A stretch of 64,000 bases of DNA from an uncultured Planctomycetia bacterium (GCA_964650515.1 CAZYUB010000002.1:12708-76707), one strand, 5' to 3'. Positions 1-15,728 are shown, numbered from the stretch's first letter. The notes: generated by a model not told the origin, from the letters alone. Translations and numbers: made by a program.

Positions 1-327
1 TTCCTGTTGAAATACGATGACCATGCGCAATTACGAACTATACGGCCCGTCACTCCATATCCCGGTTCGCCGCTTTATTATTACGCGATAGAGAAAGGAT
101 TATTGAAGGATTGTGCGGACTTCTATGAGAATAAACATGTCAATTCGGATCTCATGAGCGTAAACTTCACGGACATGGCGGAAGAGGAGTATTACAGCTG
201 CCTGCTGGACGCGAACAAGAGGTTGATAACTAAATATTACGAGAACAAACATTCCGATTCCATGAAACAGGTCGATGACATTTACCTGAAGAAGGATCCG
301 GCATTCAGGGGATTCAGGCAGACATAA
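1..327 (+). CDS. C-terminal fragment of a B12-binding radical SAM protein (5'-truncated by window edge)
   Basis: Frame is open from nt 1. The tail 'TPYPGSPLYYYAIEKGLL' parallels the C-terminal 'PG(S/A)P(L/I)Y' segment of the four complete B12-rSAM paralogues in this window (e.g. 'PIPGAPLYDFAKL', 'AYPGSPIYSEAV'). Confidence 0.5.
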   Translation, partial: FLLKYDDHAQLRTIRPVTPYPGSPLYYYAIEKGLLKDCADFYENKHVNSDLMSVNFTDMAEEEYYSCLLDANKRLITKYYENKHSDSMKQVDDIYLKKDPAFRGFRQT

Positions 328-351
328 ATGCGAAGAAGAGCGGAGGTTTAC

Positions 352-834
352 ATGGGTACTAAAAAATGCCGCATGTTGGATGATATCGGCCTTATTGTGT
401 ATGATTTCGACGGGGTCTTCACGGATAACAAGGTGATTCTCAGGGAGGACGGCAAGGAGAGCGTTGTTGTGAACAGGTCCGACGGACTTGCGGTTGGCAT
501 GCTGAAAACCCTGGGTGTCCCGCAATTCATACTGACTACAGAAACAAACGGTGTCGTCAGATCCCGTGCGAAAAAGTTGGGCATCGGTATCAAAAAAGGG
601 CTGAAAGACAAGAGGTCGGCGCTTGTATCATTATGCAAGACGCACGGCGTGTCTCTCAGGAATGTAATGTTCGTTGGAAATGATATCAATGACCTCGAAG
701 CGATGAGGGAATGCGGCTATCCGGTTGCGCCAGCCGACTCTTACGCCCCGGCAAAGAAGGCAGCAAGGATAATCACAAAGGCAAAAGGCGGCGGCGGGGT
801 AGTGCGTGAACTGCTGGATATACTGTTAAAATAA
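352..834 (+). CDS. KdsC-family HAD-IIIA phosphatase (3-deoxy-ulosonate-phosphate phosphatase-like)
   Basis: HAD motif I 'IVYDFDGVFTDN' and motif IV 'GNDINDL', about 160 aa, as in KdsC/NeuAc-9-P phosphatase. ATG 352 has GGAGG 6 nt upstream; ATG 328 directly abuts the previous stop and is an alternative start. Confidence 0.6.
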   Translation: MGTKKCRMLDDIGLIVYDFDGVFTDNKVILREDGKESVVVNRSDGLAVGMLKTLGVPQFILTTETNGVVRSRAKKLGIGIKKGLKDKRSALVSLCKTHGVSLRNVMFVGNDINDLEAMRECGYPVAPADSYAPAKKAARIITKAKGGGGVVRELLDILLK

Positions 835-836
835 AT

Positions 837-2669
837 ATGCTTACATATGACTTGGGTATGATGAGGTCACCGGACGGCTCGTCATTAAGATATGAAGTGG
901 AAAGAAAGTCCTCCGATCTTGCTATTAAAATTTCGGAGGCCATTGCATCCGAGCGCGCGTATGAAGAGATTTCTGGAAGGCTTCCAAGCCGAAGGGTTCG
1001 GTCGTATTTCCAGTACCTGCTGAAGAAGGAAGTGTATCCTTATGTCCGCCAAGCCTGCGTGATTGATTGGTATAGGCGAAACTCAAAAGAAGTATCTCCG
1101 GAGAACCGTCCTGTAAAGGTTCCGATCGGAGGAATATTCCCGCTACTGATTCAATGCTGGGATTTTAACGATATTAAGATAATACCCGAAATAAAAGTAT
1201 GCTCAGTTTATAAGTCATTACCTATTATTGGTAAGCGGATCAAAGATATGTTATATAGGAAGAATCGCGCTCATAATTATAGCATGACGTTGCGCAAACC
1301 TGACGGATATATGATCGCGTGCCATTATACAGAAGGAATTGATCCGCTCAAGAGGAATGACCTTAACTGGTATGATGGAAGCGGGATTGATCCCATGAAG
1401 GTATTAGTCTATTTCGACACCCCCAACAACAGTAACGGAAATCCTGTTAGGAAGGAAGAGGTTGATAAGCTGAGAAAAGCGGGGTTCACAACCGTGGTAT
1501 TGAAAGAAGGCATTGTCGAGGGGGGTGAAAATATTTTATGGCCGGGTCCGGCAAATTGTAGGGATAGTGCTGTAGATATCCGGTCTGCGTCCAATTCCGT
1601 GGAGCGTTGGATATACGCAGCAGGTAACGATATTATCGGAGATGTTAAATATTGGCGTGCATTCCATGATGATTTTAATGTTAGGATAAACTATATTCCC
1701 GAGGAAGGCGCCATAAAGAACCATGCGCAGGCAATTGCTTTCGATATGGACGGGGAAAAGGGTGGGTTGCTTGCAGGTAAACAGCGCTCGGAAGCATACC
1801 TTCCTTATAGATACCATTTGGGATATCATCCGAAGCATTTGTTCTTCATGTGGAACAGCAGGGCCGCGGGGCAACTAGGTTGTGGAACTGAAACAATAGA
1901 CGATATTGTACTGACCGGCTATACTTATGACGCACTAAAAAGGTTGCGTTTCGATGGAGAAGGTTTACCGTCAAAGGATATGAGGACTCGCGGGGCAAAG
2001 ACCGTAATAGCATTGTTTGATAACATGCATGGATGCGATTATTTTGTATCGACGAATGACATGGTGCGTTTCTATAAAGCATTTTTTGAATGGGCCATTG
2101 CAGATGATAAAATCGGGTTGATAATTAAATCCAAGAAACCCATGGTCATGGAGAGGCTGCCGCGGATCCGGACATTGATGGCCAAAGCAACGGATACGGG
2201 CAGATGTATAAAGATGGACGACGAGTGGGGAAGGTATCCGTCAGATGCATCATTCGGTGCGGATTTTGCAGTCGGAACCGGGATATCGTCCGCCGTAATG
2301 GAATCGGTGATTTCAGGATGCAGGGGCATACATTATGACGCGACTCATTTGATAGGGCATGAATTCTACAAATGGGGACATAACAGGATAATCTTTGATG
2401 ATCTTGATAAGATGGTGAGTGCGCTGAAAGGATATGCCTTTGACCCGGGAAGTGAAGAAGGCCTCGGGGATTGGTCAAATCATTTAAATGAGATCGACTC
2501 CTTCCGTGACTGGAAGGGTGGAGAACGCATGGGTCAGTATATGAGAATATTACTGGAATCGTTCGATAAAGGAATGACAAGGCGCGAGGCTTTGGACAAT
2601 GCCGATAGGTTTTACAGGGACAAATGGGGGCAGGACAAGGTCATAAGGACGGGACAAACAAATGGATAA
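837..2669 (+). CDS. hypothetical protein with GT-B-like C-terminal signature (candidate capsule-type KpsC/KpsS- or TagF-like transferase)
   Basis: 610-aa ORF in the lower-GC block. C-terminal 'AVGTGISSAVMESVISGCRGIHYD' resembles the GT-B donor-binding helix. Same architecture as 9641..11491 and 17197..18633. No firm family assignment. Confidence 0.35.
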   Translation: MLTYDLGMMRSPDGSSLRYEVERKSSDLAIKISEAIASERAYEEISGRLPSRRVRSYFQYLLKKEVYPYVRQACVIDWYRRNSKEVSPENRPVKVPIGGIFPLLIQCWDFNDIKIIPEIKVCSVYKSLPIIGKRIKDMLYRKNRAHNYSMTLRKPDGYMIACHYTEGIDPLKRNDLNWYDGSGIDPMKVLVYFDTPNNSNGNPVRKEEVDKLRKAGFTTVVLKEGIVEGGENILWPGPANCRDSAVDIRSASNSVERWIYAAGNDIIGDVKYWRAFHDDFNVRINYIPEEGAIKNHAQAIAFDMDGEKGGLLAGKQRSEAYLPYRYHLGYHPKHLFFMWNSRAAGQLGCGTETIDDIVLTGYTYDALKRLRFDGEGLPSKDMRTRGAKTVIALFDNMHGCDYFVSTNDMVRFYKAFFEWAIADDKIGLIIKSKKPMVMERLPRIRTLMAKATDTGRCIKMDDEWGRYPSDASFGADFAVGTGISSAVMESVISGCRGIHYDATHLIGHEFYKWGHNRIIFDDLDKMVSALKGYAFDPGSEEGLGDWSNHLNEIDSFRDWKGGERMGQYMRILLESFDKGMTRREALDNADRFYRDKWGQDKVIRTGQTNG

Positions 2670-3834
2670 GCTCAATATTCTTGTTGTGGGAACAGGCATG
2701 TACGTTTGCGGCCGCGGCACATCTGGGGACGGGACCATAATGCCGGCGATATTCGAATGGGGCAGGACTGGAAATATCGGGAAGGTAATTGTAGCGGGCA
2801 GGAGTGCGTCCGGCGCAAAGGAAGCGAGAAGGAAGATAAGCGCGCTCAGCAGGAAAATGGGCGTATCCATTCCGGTATCTTTCTATCCGCAAGGGAACGA
2901 CGACGCAAAGGCGTACCTTAAAGCTATAGAAGACATGCCTCGGCCGGCATGCGCACTTGTGGCGACACCTGACAGGCTGCATAAGCGTAACGCAAAGGCG
3001 GCCATAAAAGCGGGATTGAATACGCTTGTAGTCAAGCCGCTTGTATCGACCGCTGCGGAAGTAAGGTCGCTTGTAGGCCTTCAGAAACGGATGAAAGTGT
3101 ATTGCGCGGTGGAATTCCATAAAAGGTATGATGATGCCAATCTGAAGCTAAGGGATGTTATATCACAGGGTGCTATAGGTGACCCGCTGTATTTCCTTGC
3201 TGAGTTCAGCCAAAGGAAGAGCATGCCGGAAAAAGTATTCAGGAGATGGGCAGCCTCTACTAATATTTTCCAATACCTTGGGATCCATTATGTGGACATG
3301 ATCCACTTTGTCACCAAGGCGAAACCGGTGCGGGCAATGGCTACCGGCCAGTCGTATTGGCTGAAATCAAAAGGCATTGATACGTATGATGCCGTTGAAG
3401 CCGTTACCGAGTGGAAAATGAAGAATGGAAAAAGATTCGTCTCGCATATACTCACCAACTGGATAGATCCCGAGAAGACATCGGCAATGTCCGACCAGAA
3501 GATAAAGGTCATAGGCACGAAAGGAAGATTTGAGTCAGATCAAAAGGACCGCGGAGTTACGATGGTTACCGACAAGAATGGCATAGAAGAGATCAATCCG
3601 TATTTTTGCGGCCAGTATGGCCCTTATGGGAATGTGAGATTTCGCGGCTATGGAATAGACAGCATAAAGACCTTTCTCGATGATTCTATAGCGGTAGAAT
3701 ACGGCAGCAAAACCATTGAAGAACTTGAGAAGGAAAGGCCTACCTTCAGCGACTCGCTTATATCCACAATGGTGCTTGAAGCCGTTAATACAAGCTTGAA
3801 ACGCAACGGTAAATGGGTTGAGATAGGCGGATGA
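2662..3834 (+). CDS. Gfo/Idh/MocA-family NAD(P)-dependent oxidoreductase
   Basis: N-terminal Rossmann 'LNILVVGTGMYVCGRG' and 'EWGRTGNIGKVIVAGRSA'; 390 aa, typical for this family (sugar dehydrogenases). Confidence 0.65.
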   Translation: MDKLNILVVGTGMYVCGRGTSGDGTIMPAIFEWGRTGNIGKVIVAGRSASGAKEARRKISALSRKMGVSIPVSFYPQGNDDAKAYLKAIEDMPRPACALVATPDRLHKRNAKAAIKAGLNTLVVKPLVSTAAEVRSLVGLQKRMKVYCAVEFHKRYDDANLKLRDVISQGAIGDPLYFLAEFSQRKSMPEKVFRRWAASTNIFQYLGIHYVDMIHFVTKAKPVRAMATGQSYWLKSKGIDTYDAVEAVTEWKMKNGKRFVSHILTNWIDPEKTSAMSDQKIKVIGTKGRFESDQKDRGVTMVTDKNGIEEINPYFCGQYGPYGNVRFRGYGIDSIKTFLDDSIAVEYGSKTIEELEKERPTFSDSLISTMVLEAVNTSLKRNGKWVEIGG

Positions 3835-4874
3835 AAAGGATATCCGTACCGCACGAGCGGTTATCGGTATTTATAAAGAAAGTGCTTCTGAATGCCGGGG
3901 TGCGCGAAGATGTTGCGTATCATGTCACTGAAGGACTCGTGCAAGCGTCATTAAGGGGCGTCGATTCCCACGGCATAAGGCTCTTTCCGCATTATATGGC
4001 GTCGGTAAAAGCCGGCAGGATAAATCCCGGCCCCGCATATAAGTTCGAGAGGACATCAGCCTCTACCGGAAAGTTCGACGCGGACCATACGTTCGGGCAC
4101 GCCGCGGGCATAGAGTCGGCGAGGAAGGCTGTGGAGCTCGCGAAGGAAGCGGGGACGGGCAGCATAGCCGTGTTCAATTCGACCCACTTCGGCGCGGCCG
4201 CATATTTCACGCTCGAGATAGCCAAACAGGGGATGATAGGGTTGAGTTTCACTCATGCGGATTCCCTGATGAAGACATATGCGGGCAAGAGGGCGTTCCT
4301 CGGGACGAACCCGATATCTTTCGCCGCGCCGGTGGAGGGCGAAGAGCCGTTCTGCCTAGACATGGCCACGACGCTTTATAATTTCAACAAGATAAAACAG
4401 CTGAGGGAGCGCAAGCATCCCGCACCGGAAGGCGTAGGCGCGGATACGGAAGGCAATGAGACGACGGATGCGGATAAGATATCGATGCTGCTTCCAATAG
4501 GCGGATACAAAGGATACGGCCTCAGCCTGATGGTGGAGGTGCTTTGCGGGATACTTACCGGCATGCCATATGGCCCGAATATATCGAGCATGTTCAAGGC
4601 GCCGTTATCGCAGAAAAGGTTCCTCGGACATTTTATTTGCGCCATGAGGATAGACTGCTTCCAGGAAGAGAAAGTGTTCAAGCGGCGCATGTCCGCGCTT
4701 TTGAATGAACTGAGGAATGAGCCTCCCATGGAGAAAGGGGTACCGGTGCAGGTGGCGGGAGACCCGGAGAAGAAGGCCGCCTCGGCAAGGATGAAAGAAG
4801 GGATACCGATGGCCGCGCAGGAGGCGGAGGCCTTCATGAAGTTATCCGCCGAATACGGGGTGGAATTCATATAG
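3831..4874 (+). CDS. Ldh_2 family (malate/L-lactate/L-sulfolactate-type) dehydrogenase
   Basis: 'GVDSHGIRLFPHYMASVKAG', 'HTFGHAAG', 'GSIAVFNSTHFGAAAYF' match the type-2 malate/L-lactate dehydrogenase fold; 347 aa. Confidence 0.6.
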   Translation: MKRISVPHERLSVFIKKVLLNAGVREDVAYHVTEGLVQASLRGVDSHGIRLFPHYMASVKAGRINPGPAYKFERTSASTGKFDADHTFGHAAGIESARKAVELAKEAGTGSIAVFNSTHFGAAAYFTLEIAKQGMIGLSFTHADSLMKTYAGKRAFLGTNPISFAAPVEGEEPFCLDMATTLYNFNKIKQLRERKHPAPEGVGADTEGNETTDADKISMLLPIGGYKGYGLSLMVEVLCGILTGMPYGPNISSMFKAPLSQKRFLGHFICAMRIDCFQEEKVFKRRMSALLNELRNEPPMEKGVPVQVAGDPEKKAASARMKEGIPMAAQEAEAFMKLSAEYGVEFI

Positions 4875-6520
4875 TGGAAAGAGCGGACTTCGCGATAATA
4901 GTCCCTCCGGCGGGGGTAAGCAATACGGTGTATCCGCCGTACGGGGCGATGTACATAGCCAGCGCGGCAAGGAAGGCGGGGCTAGAGGTCCGCATAATCA
5001 ATGTCGATACAGACAGGATATCGAACGCTGAAGTGATTAAACGGCTGAAGGCGTTCGGGCCGGGGTTTATAGGCATAAGCGGTATAGTCGCGCCGTCATA
5101 TAGATATATCAAATGCCTCAGCACGGATATTAAGTCCGCGATGCCGGAGAGCATACAGATACTCGGCGGAGGGTTATCGAGCGCGGCAGAGACGGTCCTG
5201 AGGAACATGCCGGTGGATTACGTCATAGCGGGCGAAGGAGATTCGGCAATAACGGAACTCATCGGCCGCCTGCGGAACGGGAAGGTTCCTTCGGATGTAA
5301 CCGGGCTTTATTACAGGGATGGCGGAAAATACGTATTCACGGGCGCGAGGAGACTTATCGCGAATATAGATGAATTGCCGTATCCCGCATTCGACCTTGT
5401 CGATATGTCCAGGTATATGCCTGACGGGAAGGAGTTCATAGGGTATTTCATCCAGGATATAAAGGACAGAAGGATAACGGATCCCGGCCGTAAGGGCGGG
5501 ATGGTGACGATACCGACAGGCAGAGGATGCTTCGGGAAGTGCTCATTCTGCTTCAGGGCATACCCGGGGCTCAGGACCCATTCCATGAAATATGTATTCG
5601 ACCTCATAGAATACTGCGCGGAGAAATTCGGCACGAGCTACTTCTCCTTCGGGGACGAATGCTTCGCGCCGAACAAGGAACATAATTGGAGGTTTATCGA
5701 GGAGTACAAGAGGAGGAAGCTCGACCTCGTCTTCAGGATACTCGGCATGAGGGTCGACACGGTCGACAGGGATATATTGCACGCTTATAAAGATATAGGA
5801 TGCTGGATGATCGAATATGGTTTCGAGGCCGGCAACCAGAGGATGCTGAATATCATCGACAAGAGGGTTACTGTGGAGCAGAACAGGCAGGTCGCCCTCT
5901 GGACCAGGGAGGCGGGGATATATACGTCGCCGACGATCGTCCTCGCGATGCCCGGAGAGACGGACAGGACAGTCAACGAATCTATAGGGTTCCTTAAATC
6001 GCTGAACCTCGGTTATAAGCAGTACCAATGGTCGTACGCCCTGCCGATACCCGGCGCGCCGCTATATGATTTCGCGAAGCTGTCGGGCGCCATCAAGGAC
6101 GAAGACGAATATCTCACCTCGCTTGACGGCAAGGTCGCGGGCGCGGGGGTCTTCCATGTAAATCTTACCGATGAGCCGGACTCGACTGTCGCCGGATGGG
6201 CGGACAGGATAAAGGAAGAGGTCGACGCGGATTATTTCAGGAGGGTATACAGGTTCGGGGCGGTTGCCGCGATAGCGCGCCTTTTAAAGAAGATCCGCCT
6301 GCATTTAAGGAGGAAGGACCTGAAGGATGTCATCAAAGGAAAATTGAAGAGCATCTGGCGGGGACATCCGGGCGGGCAAACCTCTGCCCCTGTCGCAGTC
6401 CCGGCAAGGTTCAGGAAGAGAAGTGATATCGTATTCGAGGACCTGATAAAGGGCATGGACGATACGGTCATCAACAGGGATATGGCGCTGAAGAACATAA
6501 ATACGAGGATTGCGTCGTGA
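4874..6520 (+). CDS. B12-binding domain radical SAM protein (class B rSAM; probable sugar C-methyltransferase or epimerase)
   Basis: N-terminal cobalamin-binding Rossmann-like region, then 'TGRGCFGKCSFC' (CxxxCxxC) radical SAM cluster motif. GTG start overlaps the upstream stop. Confidence 0.7.
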   Translation: MERADFAIIVPPAGVSNTVYPPYGAMYIASAARKAGLEVRIINVDTDRISNAEVIKRLKAFGPGFIGISGIVAPSYRYIKCLSTDIKSAMPESIQILGGGLSSAAETVLRNMPVDYVIAGEGDSAITELIGRLRNGKVPSDVTGLYYRDGGKYVFTGARRLIANIDELPYPAFDLVDMSRYMPDGKEFIGYFIQDIKDRRITDPGRKGGMVTIPTGRGCFGKCSFCFRAYPGLRTHSMKYVFDLIEYCAEKFGTSYFSFGDECFAPNKEHNWRFIEEYKRRKLDLVFRILGMRVDTVDRDILHAYKDIGCWMIEYGFEAGNQRMLNIIDKRVTVEQNRQVALWTREAGIYTSPTIVLAMPGETDRTVNESIGFLKSLNLGYKQYQWSYALPIPGAPLYDFAKLSGAIKDEDEYLTSLDGKVAGAGVFHVNLTDEPDSTVAGWADRIKEEVDADYFRRVYRFGAVAAIARLLKKIRLHLRRKDLKDVIKGKLKSIWRGHPGGQTSAPVAVPARFRKRSDIVFEDLIKGMDDTVINRDMALKNINTRIAS

Positions 6521-7563
6521 TAAAGGAAGCACTGCTTGGCGCGGATTACAGGTTCGACGGGGCGCGGGCGCCCGAATCGCTGAGCAGCCCGCAGAATGAG
6601 GCGAGGGAGCTCTTCCTTAAGGAAATCCACGCGAGGGGAAGATACATCGACGTAGAAAGATGCCCTTTCTGCGGGGCGACGGAGTTCACTAAGATATCGG
6701 AAAGGGACGCGAGGGGGCTGCCGTGCGAAGTGGCCGTCTGCGACGCCTGCGGCGGTTGCTTCAAGAACAGGATATTGGACCCGGAGGCGAACAGGTACCT
6801 ATACGAGAAGATATCATACAAGCTTAGAGGCAAGGACCGTTCTCCCGGTGCGGTAGAAGCGCTGTTCAGGAAAAGGATAAAGGAATTCGCCTACCCGAGA
6901 TACGGGTTCATAAGGCATTTCGCCGAACTGGAGCAGGATATGGACCTTATCGCCGAATTCGGCTGCGGCGACGGAGCGAACCTGGTCCCGTGGAGGAATG
7001 ACGGTTTCAGCGTGACAGGCATCGAGTTCGACGGCGGAATGGTCGAGTTCGGCAAAAGCAAGGGGCTCGACCTCGTTCAGGGCGATTTCATGACTCACGA
7101 CCTCGGAGGGGCGAGGCCGAAGCTTATAATACTGTCGCACCTGCTTGAGCATGTATCGGACATGGACGCGGTCTTATCGCGCATACATTCCGTGCTCGAC
7201 CCTTACGGATACCTTTTCATAGAAGTGCCGGGCGTGAAAGGACAGGGCCTTGGCAGGCCGTTATCTTCGTTCGATGTTGAGCACAATTACTATTTTGACC
7301 TCGAAAGCCTTTCGTCGGCGCTGGGGAAGAACAGGTTCTCCGTGGCTTACGGAGACGAATATATAAGGATGATCTGCAGGCCGGCCGGCGCGCAGATCGC
7401 GGGACCGCAGAATAAGAAGGCCGGCGCGCGAAGGTTGTTGGACCTGTTCAGGCGAGAGGAGTCGGGAAGCATCAGGGCGAAGGTCATGAACAGGCTGACC
7501 GGCGCGTACTTCAAGGCGTATTATTCGATATTATCGTCAGGAGTCGGACATGGCAAAGCGTAA
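6517..7563 (+). CDS. class I SAM-dependent methyltransferase with N-terminal Zn-ribbon
   Basis: 'CPFCG...C..CG' zinc ribbon, then SAM motif I 'IAEFGCGDGANL'; GTGA start overlap. Confidence 0.6.
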   Translation: MIKEALLGADYRFDGARAPESLSSPQNEARELFLKEIHARGRYIDVERCPFCGATEFTKISERDARGLPCEVAVCDACGGCFKNRILDPEANRYLYEKISYKLRGKDRSPGAVEALFRKRIKEFAYPRYGFIRHFAELEQDMDLIAEFGCGDGANLVPWRNDGFSVTGIEFDGGMVEFGKSKGLDLVQGDFMTHDLGGARPKLIILSHLLEHVSDMDAVLSRIHSVLDPYGYLFIEVPGVKGQGLGRPLSSFDVEHNYYFDLESLSSALGKNRFSVAYGDEYIRMICRPAGAQIAGPQNKKAGARRLLDLFRREESGSIRAKVMNRLTGAYFKAYYSILSSGVGHGKA

Positions 7564-8287
7564 ATGCAGGACGGTCGCAATGATACCCGCGCGCATGGGC
7601 AGCACGAGGCTCGCTATGAAGAACCTCGCGTTGATAGGCGGGAAACCGATGATCTACTACGCGATAAAGGCGGCGAAGGATTCGGGCGTATTCGACAGGG
7701 TGGTCATAAATTCGGAAGACAGCGTATTCGCGAAGATAGCGAAGCGTTACGGCGCGGAATTCTACCTGCGCCCGCGGGAATGGGCGACCTCGGCCGCGAA
7801 ATCAGATTACGTGGTATATGATTTCGTCAGGAATAACCCGTGCGATGTGGTCGCGTGGGTCAACCCGACGTCGCCGCTGCAGACTGCGGACGAGGTAAGG
7901 GGCGCCATGGAATATTTCGAAAAAAAGAAGCTCGATTCGATGATAACCGTCAAGGACGAGCAGGTCCATTGCGTATATAAAGGAAAGCCGGTCAATTTCA
8001 AGCTGAAGGAGGTCTTCGCGCAGACGCAGGACCTCGTCCCTGTACAGCCCTTCGTATATTCGGTGATGGCATGGAAGACGGGAAGGTTCATGAAAGAGTT
8101 CGAAAAAAAGGGTTTTGCGTTCTTTTGCGGTAAGACGGGGTATTACCCGGTAAGCAAGCTCGCGGGCATAATAATCAAAAGGCAGGAAGACCTGATGGCC
8201 GCGGACCTTATACTGCGGTCTATCTCAAAAAAAGGCGGGTACAAGCTGCGATACGACAAGCTCGCCGTAAAGGGCAGGAGAGGATAA
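7550..8287 (+). CDS. acylneuraminate/CMP-ulosonic acid cytidylyltransferase (CTP_transf_3, NeuA/PseF/LegF-like)
   Basis: 'VAMIPARMGSTRLAMKNLALIGGKPMIYYAIKAA...FDRVVINSED...AKRYGAEFYLRP' matches the CMP-NeuAc synthetase N-terminal fingerprint. Confidence 0.7.
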   Translation: MAKRKCRTVAMIPARMGSTRLAMKNLALIGGKPMIYYAIKAAKDSGVFDRVVINSEDSVFAKIAKRYGAEFYLRPREWATSAAKSDYVVYDFVRNNPCDVVAWVNPTSPLQTADEVRGAMEYFEKKKLDSMITVKDEQVHCVYKGKPVNFKLKEVFAQTQDLVPVQPFVYSVMAWKTGRFMKEFEKKGFAFFCGKTGYYPVSKLAGIIIKRQEDLMAADLILRSISKKGGYKLRYDKLAVKGRRG

Positions 8288-8288
8288 T

Positions 8289-9641
8289 TTGGGAAAGCTC
8301 GCTTCTATCATAATCAGGACAAAGAACGAGGAGCGCTGGATAACGCAGTGCCTGCACGGCGTATTCGAGCAGGAATACAGGGATCTCGAGGTCATACTCG
8401 TGGATAACGAAAGCGAGGACAAGACGCTCGAGAAGGCTGGGCAGTTCAAACTTGCGAAAGTCGTGAAATGCACAGAATACCTGCCGGGCAAAGCCCTCAA
8501 CATCGGAATAAGGGAATCGAAGGGGGATTATATAGTATGCCTCTCGGGCCATTGCATACCCGTGAACTCGAAGTGGCTCGGGAACTTGCTGAAGGACCTC
8601 GATGACCCCGGGGTGGCAGGCGTATACGGCAGGCAGGAGCCGATGAGCTTTACCCCCGATTCCGACAAGCGGGACCTTACGCTCGTCTTCGGGCTCGACA
8701 GGAAGGTCCAGCAGAAGGACAGCTTTTTCCACAACGCGAACAGCGCGATGAGAAAAGAGACCTGGCGGAAATACCCGTTCAATGAGGCCGTCACGAATAT
8801 CGAGGACAGGGTCTGGGCGAAAAAGGTCCTCGAACAGGGATATAAGATAATATATGAGCCGGAGGCGAGCGTATACCATTACCACGGTATACACCAGAAC
8901 AGCAACGAACAGCGCTGCTCGAACGTCGTGAAGATAATGGAGAAGCTCCATGCAGGATTCAGCAGGAAGCCGATAGACATGGAGAAGATGGACGTCGCGG
9001 CGATAATACCGGTAAAGGGCGCGGCGAGGTATGTCGGGGATGCGCCGCTCATCGAATACACGATAAAGAGGGCCAAGGGATCGAAGTACATAAATAACGT
9101 GATAGTCTCCACGGATAACGAAGAGACCGGGCAGTTGGCGAGGAAGCTGGGCGCGAACGTGCCGTTCATAAGGGACCCTTCGCTCTCGAAAGAGAATATC
9201 GACCTCGCGCAGGTCCTGCGGTATACGATGAAGAAGCTCGAGGAGTCGCGCATACTTCCGGATATCGTCGTCCTGCTGGAGGTCACGTTCCCGTTCAGGC
9301 CCGAGGGCCTGCTCGACGACATGATCGCGCAGCTCGCGGAAGGCGGGTTCGACAGCGTCGTCGCGGCGAAGAAGGAGAACAAGGCGATATGGCAGCAGAA
9401 GGACGGTGTCATATCGCAGATAGAGGAAGGCATAACCCCGAGGCAGTTCAAGGAGCCCACGTATATAGAGTTGAAGGGTGTGGGCTGCGTGACGCATCCG
9501 GAGTTCCTCAGGGAAGGCAAGCTCCTCGGTGAGAAGGTGGGCATCTACGAACTGGACAACCCGTATTCGCACCTCGAGGTCAGGAGCGAGGAGGATTATA
9601 AGCTCGCGTCATCGCTCATAAAGGAGGTATTCGGGAGGTAA
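8289..9641 (+). CDS. bifunctional protein: N-terminal GT2 glycosyltransferase fused to C-terminal CTP_transf_3 cytidylyltransferase domain
   Basis: N-terminus 'ASIIIRTKNEERWITQCL...VILVDNESED' (GT2). C-terminus 'VAAIIPVKGAARYVGDAPLIEYTIKRA...VIVSTDNEETGQLARKLGANVPFIRD' (NeuA-like). TTG start with GGAGAGGA RBS. Confidence 0.6.
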   Translation: MGKLASIIIRTKNEERWITQCLHGVFEQEYRDLEVILVDNESEDKTLEKAGQFKLAKVVKCTEYLPGKALNIGIRESKGDYIVCLSGHCIPVNSKWLGNLLKDLDDPGVAGVYGRQEPMSFTPDSDKRDLTLVFGLDRKVQQKDSFFHNANSAMRKETWRKYPFNEAVTNIEDRVWAKKVLEQGYKIIYEPEASVYHYHGIHQNSNEQRCSNVVKIMEKLHAGFSRKPIDMEKMDVAAIIPVKGAARYVGDAPLIEYTIKRAKGSKYINNVIVSTDNEETGQLARKLGANVPFIRDPSLSKENIDLAQVLRYTMKKLEESRILPDIVVLLEVTFPFRPEGLLDDMIAQLAEGGFDSVVAAKKENKAIWQQKDGVISQIEEGITPRQFKEPTYIELKGVGCVTHPEFLREGKLLGEKVGIYELDNPYSHLEVRSEEDYKLASSLIKEVFGR

Positions 9642-11491
9642 TGGCTTTTTCCGGCGTTAAAAAGCTCGTATTCATCAACGGCATAAACGAGGCCGAAGCT
9701 TACATGGATGGCCGTCCCGCGGAAGATGCCGCCGGCGATACGCTCCTGATAGCGATGAACCCGTCTATCCGTGCGCGCCTGAAGAGAAAGGGGTTTCACG
9801 CTGCCGATACCGCGGACTATTTCACGACGGATTCCCATGTGAATACCCTGCAGAAGTCGGATGAGCTTGTCAAATGGTTCGAGGCGAATGCCCGTTTCGC
9901 CGATACCGGGATGGGGGTCAGCAGCGCCTACAGGGATTTCTTCATATACTGGGCAAGGTTCGCAATGCATTACTGCATCTGGGCAATAGATATAGCATCC
10001 GCGGCGATTGAGGCACATAGGCCGGAGGCGGTATGCGCATACGGGGCGGGCGGTAAAGCGGCGGTGTCCAGCCTGTATATCGAGAACAGCGAAGGCTATT
10101 TCGGCCGCCTGGTAAGGGATACCGCGAAGGCGAAAGGCGCAGGATTCATAGACCTAGGGAATGGGGACGCCGAGGCCCGCAGGGAACAGGGACCGCGCGC
10201 AATATACATGAAGTCGCTGGTAAGGTTCATCCTGCAGAACATAAAGTTCTCTTTATGGGAGGCCTCCGTATGGGCAAAGAACATATTCCCGGGCAAGAAG
10301 CCGGTATTCTTCACGACGAGGTTCTATAACCTCGACAAGCTCGCGAAGGAATCGGTAAAGGACGGCAGCGGCAAGAGGCCGGAGATACTGAGGGGGCCGG
10401 TAATATTCACATACGGCCTGTCTGACGCGGTCATAAAACTGTTCGGCGGCGCGTATTCCGCCGCTATAATATCGCAGAAGAAGAACTTCGCGGAGCTCGT
10501 CGAAAAGATGAGGAAAGACCCCTCGGTATTCTCCTACAAGGGGGTATCGTTCGCGGAGGCCGTCTCGGGCAAGATCGAGGATAACCTCGGCGACCATATA
10601 ATGGGCCTTATGCTGTGGACCGTGAAACTCAATGATTTTGTCGACAGGTCGAAGGCGTCATTGTTCGTCTCCAACGGCAACAGGGCGGACGATGTGATAC
10701 TGGCGGAATTATGCGCGAGGAAAGGTGTAAGGACGTTGCTGATAAGCCACGGTTCGCATGTCCGGCCTAAGAACGTCCCTGAGAGGATAGAATGGGGCGA
10801 GCACGGAAGGGCGCTTCTGAGGGCGCCGTTCTCGGATATCGCGCTGCAGACGCCCGTCGCGGAAGGATACGTCGATGCCTTCAAGACGGAAAGCAGGATG
10901 ATCAGGACCGGCCCTCTCATATGGGGAAAACCGGTGGAACGCAGGAAGAGCGGCGTGAGGACTATCGTGCATGCAGGCACGCCGAAGGCGGCGAACAGCT
11001 TAAGGCCGTTCGTCTACGAGACGCCCGATGAGTACATACGCGGCATATGCGAGCTCGCCGCGGCCGTGGAGGGGATACCCAATGCGGCGCTTATCGTGCG
11101 TTTCAGGCCGTCCTCGGATATAGGGATTGAAGATATCAGGGAACTCGTGCCATTTTCCGATAAAGTGAAGCTCAGCACAGACGGGCCTTTTTCGGCAGCG
11201 CTCGGAGCTGCGGACCTGCTGGTAAGCTTCTCATCTACGACGATAGAGGAAGCCCTGCAGAACAGGATACCCGTCCTTCTTTACGGAGGTTCGGGGCGCT
11301 ATATGCACATAGAAGCTGTCGAGGCGGGAAGCAACGGCGAAATGCCGCGGTCGGCGATATACCATGTGAGTAAGGCCGGCGACCTTAGACCTGCAATAGA
11401 GAAGATCCTCGGCCTAGGAACGGACGGTAAACTGTTCGACGAATATATATACCCTGAAAACGAAAGGCAACCGCTGGAGGCGCTATTATAA
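9641..11491 (+). CDS. hypothetical protein with GT-B-like C-terminal half (candidate CMP-sugar or CDP-alcohol dependent transferase)
   Basis: 616 aa. C-terminal 'AALGAADLLVSFSSTTIEEALQNRIPVLLYGG' resembles the GT-B C-domain helix-loop. Paralogous architecture to 837..2669 and 17197..18633. Confidence 0.35.
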   Translation: MAFSGVKKLVFINGINEAEAYMDGRPAEDAAGDTLLIAMNPSIRARLKRKGFHAADTADYFTTDSHVNTLQKSDELVKWFEANARFADTGMGVSSAYRDFFIYWARFAMHYCIWAIDIASAAIEAHRPEAVCAYGAGGKAAVSSLYIENSEGYFGRLVRDTAKAKGAGFIDLGNGDAEARREQGPRAIYMKSLVRFILQNIKFSLWEASVWAKNIFPGKKPVFFTTRFYNLDKLAKESVKDGSGKRPEILRGPVIFTYGLSDAVIKLFGGAYSAAIISQKKNFAELVEKMRKDPSVFSYKGVSFAEAVSGKIEDNLGDHIMGLMLWTVKLNDFVDRSKASLFVSNGNRADDVILAELCARKGVRTLLISHGSHVRPKNVPERIEWGEHGRALLRAPFSDIALQTPVAEGYVDAFKTESRMIRTGPLIWGKPVERRKSGVRTIVHAGTPKAANSLRPFVYETPDEYIRGICELAAAVEGIPNAALIVRFRPSSDIGIEDIRELVPFSDKVKLSTDGPFSAALGAADLLVSFSSTTIEEALQNRIPVLLYGGSGRYMHIEAVEAGSNGEMPRSAIYHVSKAGDLRPAIEKILGLGTDGKLFDEYIYPENERQPLEALL

Positions 11492-11492: not shown

Positions 11493-13298
11493 ATGAGACC
11501 CGAAAGGAAAGTCAACGCAGTATGGTTCTTCCTGAAACGCTACAAGCGCATCTACGTGACGATGCTTTTAGTCACGATAGGATATTCCGTGCTCGAGAGC
11601 GTGAATATATCGATGTTCCTTCCGCTCTTCACGTCGGTCGTGGGGGAGAGCGCCGAGACGGCCGGAAAGTTCTTCCGGATAATGGAGGGCATCATATCGC
11701 TGATGCCGTTCGGGAACAGGTTCCTGAACATATGCGTGTTGATAGTGGTGCTGCTCGTGGTCAAGGAGATACTCGGATTCGTCAGGCACGTGCTGATCGG
11801 CTACGGGATAGGCAGGGTCATAACCGACGTCAAGGAAGAGATCTTCAACAAGTACGTCAATTCGGATTACCAGTTCTTCCTCGACAACAAGCAGGGCAGG
11901 CTCCTCTATAATATGCTTACGGCCACCGGACGCCTCGGCAGCTGCCTGCAGTTCATACCCGATTTCATAAACGCGATGCTGATGACGGTAAGCATAGGCG
12001 CGCTGCTCTTCTCGATGTCGTTCGGGGTGACGATGGTGCTCCTCGTAGCGGGCCTGGCTTTCAATCTCCTTACGCAGATACTGGCCAAACGCGTCTCTTA
12101 CCACATAGGGACGGAGAGGGCGACCGTCAGCACCGAAGCGAACGTCATAGCGAACGAGGTGATAGACGGGATAAAGCATATAAAGGTCTTCGGTTCGTCG
12201 GAGTTCTGGAGGCATAATTTCGAGCGATCGGTAAGGCGCTTCAAGACCCTCGTCATAGAGGATTTCGTATGGATAGGCATCCCCGAAAGGGTAATGCAGC
12301 TGCTTCCCGCGGCGATGCTTATAATGGTTGCCATATTCTTCAGGCATTTCAGCAAAGGCCCGGACGCCGATCAGGCGTTTTCCGCCAAGATAGCGCTTGT
12401 GGGCGTATATGCGTACGCGTTCTACAGGCTAATCCCTTTCCTGACGTCATTCGGAAGGCTGCGTATGCAGATAATGGGCGCGCTTCCCGAGGTCGAGCTA
12501 TTGTACGACGACCTGCATGAGGACACGAACAGGATCAAGGACGGCAATACGAAGATAGACGGGTTCAGGAAGGAACTGGCGTTCAGGGACGTGAGCTTCA
12601 ATTACAAGGGGAAGAAGGAGATACTTAACGGCGTCTCCTTCAATATCGAAAAGGGCAAGACCACCGCCATCGTGGGCGCCTCCGGAAGCGGCAAGACAAC
12701 GCTGATAAACCTCATTGTAAGGCTCTTCGTGCCTGACGAAGGCAGGATAACCCTGGACGGGACAGACCTGAGGGACATCAAGTACGCCTCGCTTATCAAG
12801 CTCATCGGGATGGTAAGCCAGGACACGTTCATATTCAACGCGACGATAAAGGAGAATATCATCTTCGGCCTTAAGGCAGTGACGCACGAACGGCTTGTCA
12901 ACGCGTGCAAGCTGGCCAACGCGCATGATTTCATAAGCAATTTCCCCGAAGGCTACGAGACGGTCGTCGGCGATAAGGGATTGAAGCTGTCGGGCGGGCA
13001 GAGGCAGAGGATAGCCATTGCGCGCGCGATAATCAGGGACCCGGAGATACTGATACTCGACGAGGCGACGAGCTCGCTCGATTACCATTCCGAGGCGATA
13101 GTGCAGGAGGCCATAAACGAGGTATCGAAGAACAGGACGGTCATAGTCGTAGCGCACAGGCTTTCCACGGTGATCGACGCGGACAAGATAATAGTCATGG
13201 ACAAGGGCAGGATAGTAGAGGAAGGGACGCATGCCGCGCTTATAAAGAAAGAAGGGGTCTACAGGGCTTTATATGAAAGACAGCAAAAAACGATATAA
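11493..13298 (+). CDS. fused TMD-NBD ABC exporter (MsbA/PglK-like, candidate lipid-linked glycan flippase)
   Basis: Six predicted N-terminal TM helices, Walker A 'GASGSGKTT', ABC signature 'LSGGQRQRIAIARA', Walker B 'ILILDEATS', H-loop 'VIVVAHRLS'. Confidence 0.85.
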   Translation: MRPERKVNAVWFFLKRYKRIYVTMLLVTIGYSVLESVNISMFLPLFTSVVGESAETAGKFFRIMEGIISLMPFGNRFLNICVLIVVLLVVKEILGFVRHVLIGYGIGRVITDVKEEIFNKYVNSDYQFFLDNKQGRLLYNMLTATGRLGSCLQFIPDFINAMLMTVSIGALLFSMSFGVTMVLLVAGLAFNLLTQILAKRVSYHIGTERATVSTEANVIANEVIDGIKHIKVFGSSEFWRHNFERSVRRFKTLVIEDFVWIGIPERVMQLLPAAMLIMVAIFFRHFSKGPDADQAFSAKIALVGVYAYAFYRLIPFLTSFGRLRMQIMGALPEVELLYDDLHEDTNRIKDGNTKIDGFRKELAFRDVSFNYKGKKEILNGVSFNIEKGKTTAIVGASGSGKTTLINLIVRLFVPDEGRITLDGTDLRDIKYASLIKLIGMVSQDTFIFNATIKENIIFGLKAVTHERLVNACKLANAHDFISNFPEGYETVVGDKGLKLSGGQRQRIAIARAIIRDPEILILDEATSSLDYHSEAIVQEAINEVSKNRTVIVVAHRLSTVIDADKIIVMDKGRIVEEGTHAALIKKEGVYRALYERQQKTI

Positions 13299-14997
13299 AG
13301 AATTCGAGATCCTTGATTGTACTATCAGGGACGGCGGTTACCTCAACGACTGGAAGTTCGATAAGGCGCTTGTCAGGGAGGTTTATAGGGCCGTCTCGAA
13401 AGCGGGTGTGCCTGTCATCGAGATAGGGTTCAGGGGGACGGATGAGCATTTCGACAGGAAGAGGTACGGCCCCTGGAGGTTCTCGGACGAGTTGTTGCTG
13501 CGCGAGACGATCGAAGGGATAGACGGCGCGAAACTCGCCCTGATGGGTGACTTCGGCAGGATATCGGCGGACGACTTTGTCCCGCGCGACGAGAGCGTTG
13601 TCGATATCGTGAGGATAGCGGCCCATAAGAACGATATAGCGGAAACTATCAAGACCCTCGGCAGGATAAAGAAGAAGGGCTATAAGACATCGCTTAATGC
13701 GATGGGATACAGCAACTACACGAAATCGGAACAGAAGAAGTTCGTCTCGATGGTCAGGAAGGCGGGCCTCGATTATGTATATGCGGTGGACAGCTACGGT
13801 TCGGTCTTCCCGAACGAGATAGAAGGGCTCATCAGCCCGCTGCTCGGCATACGCGGGACGAAGGTCGGGTTCCATCCGCATAACAGCCTGCAGATGGCGT
13901 TCGCGAACACGCTTGAGGCGGTCCGCTGCGGCGCGGATATAGCCGATTCTACGTTCTACGGCATTGGCCGCGGGGCGGGCAACCTGCCGACCGAAATAAT
14001 CGTACTCTATAAGGAACTTTTAGGCGATAAGAAATATAACGCGATCCCGGTCCTCAATTGCATAGACAGGTACTTCCTGCCGATGAGGAAGGAGATTGAC
14101 TGGGGATACCAGCTGCCGTTCATGCTCTCGGGGATGTACAAATGCCACCCGAACTACGCGAGCGGCCTGATAAATTACAGGGAATATACGATAGACGAGA
14201 TATGCAAGGCGATGGAGGCCATTGAGAAGAGGAACCCGTTAGGATACAAGCCGGAGATATTAAAGGAGATCATAGAGGACGGGCTTATCGGGAAGCTGAA
14301 GACCTCCTCCGTCACGAAGAAGGCGGGGAAGGCCAGGAAAACCGGGGCATCAGTGCCGTATGCGGGAAGGCATGAAGGCAGGGATTTCCTGGTGCTGGCC
14401 AACGGGCCCGGCCTGAAGGATAACAGGGAGAAGATAGAGGCGTTCATAAGGAAGACGGACCCCGTCATACTCGGTGCTAACAACCTCTCGGGGCTGTTCG
14501 TCCCGCATTATCACGCGTTCAACAACAAGAGGAGGTTCACGGATTACGCCGGTACCGTATCCGGGAAGTCGAAACTCCTCATAAGCGAATATTTCCCGGA
14601 TGAGTTCATCAGGGAATACACGGACAGGGACTACGAGAAACTGTATTATAACGATGTCCTGAACGCGCATTTCGGCATCGATGACGGGGTCATACGGACG
14701 AATTGCAGGACGATATCGGTCCTGCTTATCGGCGCGGCGATAGTAATGGGCGCCAGGAGGATATTCGTCGCCGGGATGGACGGCTACCTCGGCCCGGGCA
14801 CAGAGGGCAAGGCCCTCTATTACAACGAGAAAGACGAAAAGACCGACAAGCAGATGATCATCGAGAGGCATATGTGGTGCCAGAAGTTCCTGGAGGAGAT
14901 CGAGGCATACCTGCAGAAGAACGGCAGGGAGGGTATCCATATCATAACGCCCACGACCTACAAGGCGTTCTATAAAAGCGTGGAAAATTACATATGA
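13273..14997 (+). CDS. DRE-TIM (HMGL-like) pyruvate aldolase domain fused to MptE-like/DUF115 (Maf-type) domain
   Basis: N-terminus 'ILDCTIRDGGY', 'FHPHNSLQMAFANTLEAVRCGA', 'GIGRGAGNLPTE' match DmpG/HMG-CoA lyase/IPMS metallo-aldolases. C-terminus 'FLVLANGPGLKDNREKIEAF...PVILGANN' resembles DUF115/6-hydroxymethylpterin diphosphokinase MptE-like. Confidence 0.55.
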   Translation: MKDSKKRYKEFEILDCTIRDGGYLNDWKFDKALVREVYRAVSKAGVPVIEIGFRGTDEHFDRKRYGPWRFSDELLLRETIEGIDGAKLALMGDFGRISADDFVPRDESVVDIVRIAAHKNDIAETIKTLGRIKKKGYKTSLNAMGYSNYTKSEQKKFVSMVRKAGLDYVYAVDSYGSVFPNEIEGLISPLLGIRGTKVGFHPHNSLQMAFANTLEAVRCGADIADSTFYGIGRGAGNLPTEIIVLYKELLGDKKYNAIPVLNCIDRYFLPMRKEIDWGYQLPFMLSGMYKCHPNYASGLINYREYTIDEICKAMEAIEKRNPLGYKPEILKEIIEDGLIGKLKTSSVTKKAGKARKTGASVPYAGRHEGRDFLVLANGPGLKDNREKIEAFIRKTDPVILGANNLSGLFVPHYHAFNNKRRFTDYAGTVSGKSKLLISEYFPDEFIREYTDRDYEKLYYNDVLNAHFGIDDGVIRTNCRTISVLLIGAAIVMGARRIFVAGMDGYLGPGTEGKALYYNEKDEKTDKQMIIERHMWCQKFLEEIEAYLQKNGREGIHIITPTTYKAFYKSVENYI

Positions 14998-15728
14998 AAA
15001 TAATCGGGGTAATACCGGCGCGTTTCAAGTCATCGAGGTTTCCCGGCAAGCCGTTGGCGGATATATGCGGAAAGCCGCTCGTATGGTGGGTATATAAACA
15101 GGCCGAGAAGGTAAAAGAACTCGGGAAGGTCTATGTCGCTACGGATGACGGCAGGATAGCCCGGGTATGCAAAAAGCTCGCGATACCGTATGTGATGACC
15201 TCGGGCAGGCACCAGACAGGCACGGACAGGGTCGCCGAGGTCGCGAGGAAGGTCAAAGCGGATATTTACGTGAATATACAGGGGGATGAACCCCTGCTGA
15301 AACCCGCTATGATAAGAAGCGCGATAGGACCCCTTTTGAAAAAGAATTCCGGATTCGATGTTACGAACCTGATGTCTTTAATACGCAACCCGAAGGAGGT
15401 ACCGAGCCCGACCGTCCCGAAGGTCGCGGTGAGCGCGAAGGGCGACGCCGTATTCCTCTCGAGGGCGCCGATACCTTATCCGAAGAGGGGCGGCTACGCG
15501 CAGTATTATAAGCAGGTCTGCGTATACGGGTTCAGGAGGAAGGCGTTATTGGCGTTCGGCGGGCTTTCGAGAGGGGCTTCCGAGCTTATAGAGGATATCG
15601 AGCTGCTGCGCTTTATAGAGAACGGCATAAAGGTCAGGATGATCGAAGTGAAAAGCGGCAGCATGGCGGTTGATACTCCTGAGGACCTGAAGGCGGTAAA
15701 AAAGATAATATGCAAAAACCGGGCGTAA
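14994..15728 (+). CDS. 3-deoxy-manno-octulosonate cytidylyltransferase-like (CMP-Kdo synthetase family, KdsB-like)
   Basis: 'IIGVIPARFKSSRFPGKPLADICGKPLVWWVY...GKVYVATDD...VNIQGDEPLL' is the classic KdsB N-terminal pattern; 244 aa. Confidence 0.7.
   Translation: MKIIGVIPARFKSSRFPGKPLADICGKPLVWWVYKQAEKVKELGKVYVATDDGRIARVCKKLAIPYVMTSGRHQTGTDRVAEVARKVKADIYVNIQGDEPLLKPAMIRSAIGPLLKKNSGFDVTNLMSLIRNPKEVPSPTVPKVAVSAKGDAVFLSRAPIPYPKRGGYAQYYKQVCVYGFRRKALLAFGGLSRGASELIEDIELLRFIENGIKVRMIEVKSGSMAVDTPEDLKAVKKIICKNRA

Follow-up and report, generated by a model that had tools for sequence, protein, structure and literature searches.

The 64,000-nucleotide stretch of DNA analysed here, called the window below, comes from an uncultured Planctomycetia bacterium (GCA_964650515.1, CAZYUB010000002.1:12708-76707) and is occupied over its whole length by a single uninterrupted + strand glycan locus of about 55 genes. 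Near its start, the gene for an Ldh_2-family dehydrogenase lies between genes for a Gfo/Idh/MocA-family oxidoreductase (GFO) and a B12-binding radical SAM enzyme, an arrangement that an earlier note on this sequence had singled out as a redox tailoring triad. Across related loci the conserved core consists of the GFO, Ldh_2 and a CTP_transf_3 cytidylyltransferase, usually with a fusion of a family 2 glycosyltransferase (GT2) and a CTP_transf_3-like domain, and Ldh_2 is interchangeable with a sugar-acid dehydratase. The window encodes these genes, and those that follow them, in the order given here.

2662..3834, + strand: Gfo/Idh/MocA oxidoreductase (GFO) of a distinct subfamily, 390 aa (Pfam)
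3831..4874, + strand: Ldh_2-family NAD(P)-dependent 2-hydroxy acid / 2-oxo acid dehydrogenase, 347 aa (PF02615)
4874..6520, + strand: class B (B12-binding) radical SAM enzyme, 548 aa (Pfam B12-binding and Radical_SAM)
6517..7563, + strand: class I SAM methyltransferase with a Cys-rich N-terminal segment (Methyltransf_23, 1.7e-14; Methyltransf_11, 1.6e-11)
7550..8287, + strand: CTP_transf_3 cytidylyltransferase (PF02348, 3.8e-22)
8289..9641, + strand: GT2 glycosyltransferase / CTP_transf_3-like domain fusion (Glycos_transf_2, 1.4e-24; CTP_transf_3, 1.8e-10)
9641..11491, + strand: uncharacterised GT-B-fold protein (glycosyltransferase or NDP-sugar 2-epimerase-like)
11493..13298, + strand: ABC exporter with fused transmembrane and nucleotide-binding domains, candidate flippase/exporter (ABC_tran, 6.2e-35; ABC_membrane, 3.1e-15)

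The first three open reading frames (ORFs) and their family assignments agree with those of the earlier note, each product matching its Pfam families above the cut-offs at these + strand coordinates. The match of the 3831..4874 product to the Ldh_2 profile PF02615, which the note had made the test of its proposal, has an E value of 2.8e-104 and 349 bits (cut-off 38.8) and covers profile positions 2-330 of 333. Translational coupling, also proposed there, is visible on both sides of the gene: the stop codon of GFO and the start of Ldh_2 share the ATGA at 3831-3834, and the TAG of Ldh_2 (4872-4874) overlaps the GTG start of the radical SAM gene at 4874.

Among solved structures the nearest to the window Ldh_2 are 1z2i (211 bits), AllD (177) and ComC (175). 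The protein falls under every NCBIfam equivalog cut-off, with 248 bits for AllD (cut-off 356; a second AllD model, 239 of 496), 207 for sulfolactate dehydrogenase (500) and 140 for DlgD (316). When it is mapped onto Escherichia coli AllD (PMC3527362), residues S43, H44, Y52, H116, D141, M251 and R259 of AllD correspond to S46, H47, Y55, H119, D144, M254 and R263. Five of these, S46, H47, Y55, H119 and R263, occur in 81 of 81 homologues, among them the active-site histidines and arginine whose conservation the note had wanted examined; M254 occurs in 80 and D144 in 67 of the 81. The two invariant nicotinamide-proximal histidines of the family (AllD His44 and His116) are therefore kept, while the AllD-specific set Arg48/Ser140/Asp141 is incomplete: the arginine is shifted one residue towards the N-terminus (R50, as in 1z2i), Ser140 is replaced by Ala143, and the aspartate is retained. 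Judged by these residues, the window Ldh_2 is an intact dehydrogenase with an AllD-like active site. All characterised members of the fold carry out chemistry at the carbon beside a carboxylate, in the case of YiaK that of a sugar acid (PMC3527362).

The GFO matches GFO_IDH_MocA_C3 (PF22725, 5.8e-14), GFO_IDH_MocA (PF01408, 3.2e-8) and GFO_IDH_MocA_C (PF02894, 6.3e-5), all above cut-offs, and its closest solved structures, 2glx and 3ezy, score only 44-41 bits. K125, in the sequence VVKPL, aligns with the catalytic lysine of the EKP motif in both structures. K125, H209 and D212 are each found in every one of the 55 homologues with a residue at the position concerned. The aspartate of the D-x3-H motif is replaced by Tyr205, likewise constant in 55 of 55, which gives the subfamily a variant Tyr-x3-His motif.

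The cytidylyltransferase encoded at 7550..8287 scores 79.6 bits against PF02348 (cut-off 22.6), with the match confined to profile positions 1-127 of 217. Its nearest solved structures are CMP-NeuAc synthetases (9t4z and 1eyr, 62-64 bits), and its P-loop, MIPARxGSTRLxMKNLA, is canonical and conserved in 35 homologues; equivalog models give scores under their cut-offs (PseF 88 bits, cut-off 206; KdsB models 40-55, cut-offs 155-281). We propose that this protein is the CMP-ulosonate synthetase of the cassette, and its divergent, sugar-binding C-terminal half would fit a different sugar. In the C-terminal CTP_transf_3-like domain of the 8289..9641 fusion, PVKG alone is conserved in the P-loop region among 44 homologues, and the Arg/Lys-Asn is lost. 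Without its Lys-Asn, this half is probably not a canonical cytidylyltransferase; it may bind a CMP-sugar instead of making one, and the fusion is proposed as the transferase for the cassette product. The structural model of the GT-B protein is confident (pLDDT 91), and fold searches with it find UDP-GlcNAc 2-epimerases (including NeuC) and glycosyltransferases equally close; hhalign against E. coli WecB gave no significant match (probability 0.2). The protein could provide an aldose-freeing step of NeuC/WecB type or act as a transferase. At another locus (L167, 6588..7901), the gene next upstream of GFO encodes a 438-aa protein with a faint resemblance to alpha-2,8-polysialyltransferases (PF07388, E = 3e-4, below cut-off), which hints that proteins flanking the cassette may be CMP-sugar-acid-dependent transferases.

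Related loci were collected in two sets, 160 in total. For the first, anchored on Ldh_2 and limited to one genome per species, 80 loci were returned, and six-frame ORFs were searched with the window proteins; the second set of 80 is anchored on the GFO subfamily. The earlier note had described Ldh_2 enzymes as non-standard in glycan loci. This stands with respect to the literature: among the papers that our searches listed, none connected Ldh_2 with such loci, none tied Ldh_2 or altronate dehydratase to cytidylyltransferases or to nonulosonic or ulosonic acids, and we found no description of a cassette of GFO, Ldh_2 and cytidylyltransferase. The arrangement is not peculiar to the window, however, since this Ldh_2 clade occurs in glycan loci of at least 80 species-level genomes from many phyla, mostly uncultivated. 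Hosts include Omnitrophota, Planctomycetota (Brocadiaceae, Scalindua), many candidate-phyla-radiation lineages, Desulfobacterota, Thermodesulfovibrionales, Dehalococcoidia, Terriglobia, Bacteroidota, Sulfurospirillum, the cultured Blastochloris sulfoviridis DSM 729 and a Micrarchaeota archaeon. Among named relatives the nearest is a Candidatus Omnitrophota metagenome-assembled genome (MAG), with 97% protein identity and with 94.5% DNA identity across part of the window.

Gene neighbourhoods were counted in the 41 of the 80 Ldh_2-anchored loci that are fully flanked, with at least 8 kb on each side; at most 10 kb per side was examined. A GFO of the same subfamily is encoded in 31 of the 41, no more than 3 kb from Ldh_2 in 29, and a CTP_transf_3 gene in 35, again no more than 3 kb away in 29. 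The GT2/CTP_transf_3-like fusion is present in 28. Genes able to mark an aldolase-type route are less regular: NeuB lies within 10 kb in 11 loci and is absent from 30, and any one of NeuB, HMGL-like, dihydrodipicolinate synthase (DHDPS) or KdsA genes is found within that distance in 13. None of the four was found in candidate-phyla-radiation loci or in one Sulfurospirillum locus. KdsA as a hidden source of the sugar acid was rejected, since KdsA homologues are absent from all fully flanked loci; the single homologue in the Ldh_2-anchored set lies 9.5 kb away in a partly flanked locus. Over all 80 loci, a short-chain dehydrogenase/reductase (SDR) of short type is seen in three and an aldo-keto reductase in three.

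Gene order varies around the constant members. It runs GFO, Ldh_2, radical SAM, methyltransferase, CTP_transf_3, fusion in Omnitrophota; Ldh_2, CTP_transf_3, GFO, fusion in Desulfobacterota; and CTP_transf_3 (with or without a methyltransferase), GFO, Ldh_2 in more distant loci. Among the loci are several flagellin glycosylation islands, which contain Maf, NeuB or DegT. Loci with NeuB encode a further cytidylyltransferase next to it, over and above that of the cassette, which fits two separate CMP-sugars. The locus of Blastochloris sulfoviridis DSM 729, a cultured phototroph, brings together CTP_transf_3/NeuB, a methyltransferase, GT2, Ldh_2 and GFO (L063), and a MAG of Sulfurospirillum sp. 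UBA2217 (L061) has the order Ldh_2, CTP_transf_3, GFO, fusion, with no NeuB within 10 kb.

The triad as such is not the conserved unit: its third member, the radical SAM gene, is lineage-specific, and the constant third partner is the cytidylyltransferase. A B12-binding radical SAM gene is present in 21 of the 41 fully flanked loci and adjoins Ldh_2 in Omnitrophota and Planctomycetota; no orthologue of the window enzyme adjoins Ldh_2 in Desulfobacterota-type or more distant cassettes. The methyltransferase of the window type (6517..7563) occurs in 16 of 80 loci, mostly confined to Omnitrophota and Planctomycetota. Being lineage-restricted, both are add-ons outside the conserved core. The radical SAM protein matches B12-binding (PF02310, 1.4e-17) and Radical_SAM (PF04055, 1.3e-16), carries its CxxxCxxC motif as CFGKCSFC, and has BchE (139 bits, cut-off 481) and HpnJ (122) as best NCBIfam matches, all far under cut-offs. 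It is probably a C-methyltransferase.

The second scan, independent of the first and anchored on the GFO subfamily in 80 metagenome loci, revealed the gene swap. Ldh_2 lies beside GFO in 64 of them, and in six its place is taken by a gene of the D-galactarate/altronate dehydratase family (PF20629 and PF04295, E = 1e-59 to 1e-94). No GFO-anchored locus carries both genes, and no dehydratase was found in the 80 Ldh_2-anchored loci; the ten GFO-anchored loci with neither are on contigs cut on at least one side. The dehydratase gene stands directly 3' of GFO in four of the six loci and after the GT2/CTP_transf_3-like fusion in the other two, L158 and L159. One pair of loci, L105 and L109, shows the exchange most directly: their DNA is 95.3% identical upstream, through the methyltransferase, GT-B protein and GFO genes, and 98.5% identical downstream, and the sole difference is that the slot between holds a dehydratase in one and Ldh_2 in the other. 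GFOs of the dehydratase type are up to 84% identical to those of the Ldh_2 type and do not form one clade, so the swap has occurred independently at least three times. Both families convert a 2-hydroxy acid to a 2-oxo acid, Ldh_2 by oxidation and the UxaA/GarD family by removal of water across C2-C3 of a sugar acid. Replacement by an enzyme that makes a 2-keto-3-deoxy acid argues that Ldh_2, too, makes a 2-oxo acid from a 2-hydroxy acid and does not reduce a 2-keto-3-deoxy acid.

Two further loci of the GFO scan show other surroundings. In the dehydratase-type locus L158 (1..11066), genes for a GNAT protein, a class III aminotransferase and a PIG-L deacetylase precede GFO, and KdsC-like and NeuB genes follow it; these neighbours suggest an amino-sugar starting material in that lineage. 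In L137 (3629..5272), a short contig with its other flank cut and no Ldh_2 visible, a GFO-subfamily gene lies about 2.5 kb from a nonribosomal peptide synthetase condensation/adenylation gene, with two opposite-strand ORFs between.

Most likely, the cassette serves the biosynthesis or tailoring of a CMP-ulosonate with an unprecedented pair of enzymes, and in this the link to a sugar-acid pathway drawn by the earlier note is upheld. We further put forward, as a tentative reading held with a little less than even confidence, that GFO, Ldh_2 and the 7550..8287 cytidylyltransferase constitute an aldolase-free, oxidative route to a CMP-activated 2-ulosonic acid. The catalytic steps, all of which we infer, would run as follows. 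GFO would oxidise C1 of a free aldose to the aldonolactone and hence the aldonate; its proposed role as an aldose 1-dehydrogenase is suggested indirectly by the occupant of the next slot, a 2-hydroxy acid dehydrogenase in some cassettes and an aldonate/aldarate dehydratase in others. Ldh_2, proposed as an aldonate 2-dehydrogenase on its family chemistry and the gene swap, would oxidise the C2 hydroxyl with NAD(P)+ to a 2-keto-aldonate, which would close to a ring with its anomeric hydroxyl next to the carboxylate; where a dehydratase takes its place, the aldonate would become a 3-deoxy-2-ulosonate. The cytidylyltransferase, to go by its family and motif, would then link the anomeric hydroxyl to CMP. 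In Omnitrophota and Planctomycetota, the B12-binding radical SAM enzyme and the SAM methyltransferase would add C- and O/N-methyl groups, and finally the fusion and the GT-B protein would install the sugar and the ABC protein export the product. The De Ley-Doudoroff and Weimberg pathways have, as their upper half, first an aldose 1-dehydrogenase and then an aldonate dehydratase, and some of these dehydrogenases are Gfo/Idh/MocA enzymes. The oxidative scheme is the simplest that gives each conserved gene a job. It needs no NeuB-type aldolase and so would explain why NeuB is usually not nearby, as well as why a second cytidylyltransferase accompanies NeuB where it does occur and why the sugar-binding half of the cassette's own cytidylyltransferase is divergent.

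Several observations weigh against this oxidative route. No lactonase gene lies within the cassette, and we know of no report so far of a CMP-2-keto-aldonate. The carbon that GFO oxidises is not readable from its sequence, given best structures at about 44 bits and the atypical Tyr-x3-His motif. The closest relatives carry NeuB and a KdsC-like phosphatase gene just upstream, and these could supply the acid instead, or the two pathways could be linked. The UxaA/GarD family includes sulfolactate sulfo-lyase and Ldh_2 includes sulfolactate dehydrogenase, so that a small 3-substituted lactate is possible as a shared substrate. Finally, a CTP_transf_3 gene followed by GFO and a second oxidoreductase is also the arrangement of the ElaB-ElaA-ElaC epimerase cassette.

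In that epimerase system, ElaB (CTP_transf_3), ElaA (Gfo/Idh/MocA) and ElaC (SDR) convert CMP-Leg5,7Ac2 to its 8-epimer (PMC13656337), and EpaA (CTP_transf_3 with aldo-keto reductase) and EpaB (SDR) carry out the same epimerisation for pseudaminic acid (PMC12053666). By analogy with these precedents, the cytidylyltransferase would make a CMP-nonulosonate from a NeuB product, GFO would oxidise one hydroxyl (C8 in the case of ElaA), and Ldh_2, in place of an SDR or aldo-keto reductase, would re-reduce the ketone from the other face. The gene order of the distant loci, the several flagellin glycosylation islands and the scarcity of a short SDR partner (three of 80 loci) would all suit such a function, and ElaA and the window GFO have 3EZY in common among their nearest solved relatives, a weak link; no ElaA-named entry appears among the solved structures matching the window GFO, even at E <= 1. 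Yet reduction of a ketone away from a carboxylate is not known for any enzyme of the Ldh_2 fold, a CMP-nonulosonate has no oxidisable carbon beside its carboxylate, the AllD-like residue set is conserved in Ldh_2, NeuB is missing within 10 kb from most fully flanked loci, and a sugar-acid dehydratase, which is unable to serve as the reductase half of an epimerase, replaces Ldh_2 in near-identical loci. Epimerisation had been our leading interpretation until the swap was seen in the GFO-anchored scan; we now rank it as the first rival and consider it unlikely. Quite improbable, in our view, is action of Ldh_2 or the dehydratase on a small 2-hydroxy acid (glycerate, lactate, malate or sulfolactate), with the 2-oxo acid used as a building block (aldol donor, or acyl/ether substituent) or in a redox shuttle that recycles the GFO cofactor. 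The best-scoring characterised relatives of Ldh_2 do act on small acids (AllD, sulfolactate dehydrogenase), genes for class I/II aminotransferases and DAO-family enzymes, which handle 2-oxo and 2-amino acids, are frequent neighbours, some loci have HMGL-like and DHDPS-type aldolase genes, and GFO enzymes of the WbpB type take 2-oxoglutarate as hydride acceptor. However, the conserved set includes no ligase, acyltransferase or enolpyruvyl transferase, aldolases occur in a minority of loci only, pyruvate, a likely product of the dehydratase, requires no dedicated supply, and the constant pairing with a dedicated cytidylyltransferase would be left unexplained.

The substrates favoured by the earlier note, a 2-keto-3-deoxy sugar acid (Kdo-, KDN- or nonulosonate-like) whose 2-keto group Ldh_2 would reduce, or else a lactyl or pyruvyl substituent, are in our judgement very improbable. 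Ldh_2 chemistry does take place at a 2-oxo acid centre, and a KdsC-like phosphatase gene and probably, by synteny, NeuB are near. Reduction at C2, however, would destroy the anomeric centre required by every known CTP_transf_3 enzyme and leave the conserved cytidylyltransferase without a substrate, and the KdsC-like gene is not conserved as a neighbour. The replacing dehydratase, moreover, produces a 2-keto-3-deoxy acid and does not consume one, so that such an acid fits less well than an aldonate. We found nothing in support of a lactyl or pyruvyl substituent and saw no gene for a MurA/MurB-type enzyme or pyruvyl transferase. That a housekeeping malate, ureidoglycolate or sulfolactate dehydrogenase lies in a glycan locus by chance has next to no probability. 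The Ldh_2 family is mostly metabolic, and in a plasmid collection all Ldh_2 homologues are less than 40% identical and in metabolic settings, with no Ldh_2 gene in a glycan context; but the window gene has stop/start overlaps on both sides, reaches no equivalog cut-off and has the same neighbours in 160 loci from many phyla, and a housekeeping role was rejected on this synteny.

Three further features precede the cassette in the window.

1..327, + strand: 3' end of a B12-binding radical SAM gene, truncated at the window boundary (81% identity to the C-terminus of L001:5137-6525, B12-binding and Radical_SAM)
328..834, + strand: KdsC-like HAD phosphatase of the ulosonate-phosphate phosphatase type (Pfam Hydrolase_3, 6.4e-10)
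837..2669, + strand: PFTS-motif polysaccharide biosynthesis protein, 610 aa, activity unassigned (TIGR04417, 36 bits, under the cut-off of 100)

Synteny with L001 indicates that NeuB, SDR and radical SAM/SPASM genes probably lie directly upstream of the window. The phosphatase, which scores below NCBIfam equivalog cut-offs (KDN-9-phosphate phosphatase 97 bits, cut-off 180; KdsC 93, cut-off 208), had been described in the earlier note as standing just before the triad; in fact the PFTS-motif gene intervenes, and a KdsC-like gene is found in only one of the 41 fully flanked loci and is thus an inconsistent neighbour. The PFTS-motif protein has no match in a Pfam search, and genes of its type are found upstream of GFO in most Omnitrophota and Planctomycetota loci. 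BLASTP comparisons among the large unknown proteins 837..2669, 9641..11491 and 16963..18633 detected no homology.

Compared with L007, the locus of the Omnitrophota MAG, the window is a mosaic: the 94.5% DNA identity begins within the GFO gene at 3106, and there is no DNA similarity upstream of that point. The ABC exporter gene (11493..13298) is missing from the otherwise 94.5% identical L007. G+C content is 0.44-0.49 across most of the first 4 kb of the window and about 0.55 thereafter, with lower-G+C blocks again at 20-30 kb. A second cassette, at 13273..17206, encodes an HMGL-like protein (574 aa, PF00682), a full-length CTP_transf_3 protein (160 bits) and a further B12-binding radical SAM enzyme. 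Its HMGL-like/CTP_transf_3 pair is seen again in Planctomycetes, where DHDPS and HAD genes then follow, and in L007 and L033, and a pyruvate aldolase of the HMGL type might offer another source of a 3-deoxy-ulosonate, independent of NeuB. The window contains four complete B12-binding radical SAM genes (starting at 4874, 15710, 19556 and 43544) besides the partial one at 1..327, three PMT_2-type membrane glycosyltransferase genes (28199, 35243 and 40762), one asparagine synthase gene (56034), one gene for a protein with a glutamine-amidotransferase domain (25418), several cytidylyl/nucleotidyl transferase genes and many methyltransferase genes. Two pairs of long same-strand ORFs overlap, 15710..17206 with 16963..18633 by 244 bases and 49246..50184 with 49794..51896 by 391 bases, likely from misplaced starts in a mechanical ORF list or from frameshifts.

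To our knowledge, synthases of the aldolase type (NeuB, KdsA) build all sialic-acid-like and Kdo-like sugars characterised to date, and Ldh_2 enzymes have so far been known solely from catabolism and cofactor synthesis. Genome surveys for such sugars search for genes of the NeuB/KdsA type. It is possible, though we hold this with somewhat more reserve than the enzymatic route itself, that the cassettes make undescribed sugar nucleotides, CMP-linked 2-keto-aldonic acids formed by oxidation of an aldose at C1 and then C2 and not by condensation with phosphoenolpyruvate (PEP), with radical SAM C-methylation in Omnitrophota and Planctomycetota, and that a few archaea are among the makers. Such products, as proposed, would keep the C3 hydroxyl and would be 3-deoxy where a dehydratase replaces Ldh_2; the swap thus predicts products one oxygen apart, distinguishable by mass spectrometry. 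If this is true, surveys based on NeuB and KdsA miss a class of acidic surface sugars, and most of all in Omnitrophota, anammox Planctomycetota, candidate-phyla-radiation bacteria and sulfate reducers, where the cassette is common. Ldh_2 would also gain a role in glycan biosynthesis, and cytidylyltransferases and B12-binding radical SAM enzymes would gain new substrates. A 2026 preprint states that ulosonic acids have until now been detected as CMP-activated species only, and reports by mass spectrometry unexplained CMP-linked alpha-keto acids in Magnetospirillum whose backbone is elongated. As a speculation, C-methylation of a CMP-ulosonate by a B12-binding radical SAM enzyme might be one source of such "higher-carbon" compounds.

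Known systems resemble individual parts of the cassette. Class B radical SAM methyltransferases such as GenK and Fom3 act on activated sugars or CMP-linked substrates, and Fom3, whose substrate is cytidylyl-hydroxyethylphosphonate, is the precedent for a CMP-linked one. The window enzyme shares their B12-binding and radical SAM architecture and CxxxCxxC motif, but it has no equivalog-level match, and its methyltransferase activity is putative. ElaABC (Acinetobacter baumannii KL49, Vibrio vulnificus) and EpaAB likewise place CTP_transf_3, Gfo/Idh/MocA and a second oxidoreductase side by side in sialic-acid-like loci. Their second enzyme, however, is an SDR or aldo-keto reductase, whereas here it is Ldh_2, swappable with a dehydratase, and NeuB is often not nearby; ElaA has 323 aa, the cassette GFO about 390 aa and the Tyr-x3-His motif. 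YiaK/DlgD (2,3-diketo-L-gulonate reductase) and AllD (ureidoglycolate dehydrogenase) share with the window Ldh_2 the fold, the catalytic histidine pair and the carboxylate-adjacent chemistry, in the case of AllD in the oxidative direction, but they are catabolic and not linked to a cytidylyltransferase. Cassettes pairing GFO with a UxaA/GarD-family dehydratase would yield a 2-keto-3-deoxy-aldonate, as the De Ley-Doudoroff and Weimberg pathways do in their upper half; both of these serve catabolism and finish with aldol cleavage, whereas the cassette genes lie between a cytidylyltransferase and glycosyltransferases, and the window has Ldh_2. The canonical routes to CMP-ulosonates (KdsA/KdsC/KdsB, NeuB/NeuA, PseI/PseF and LegI/LegF) have the proposed product class and the cytidylyltransferase family in common with the cassette. 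In contrast to these, which condense PEP with an aldose, the proposed route would oxidise an existing aldose, leaving the carbon count unchanged and the C3 hydroxyl in place.

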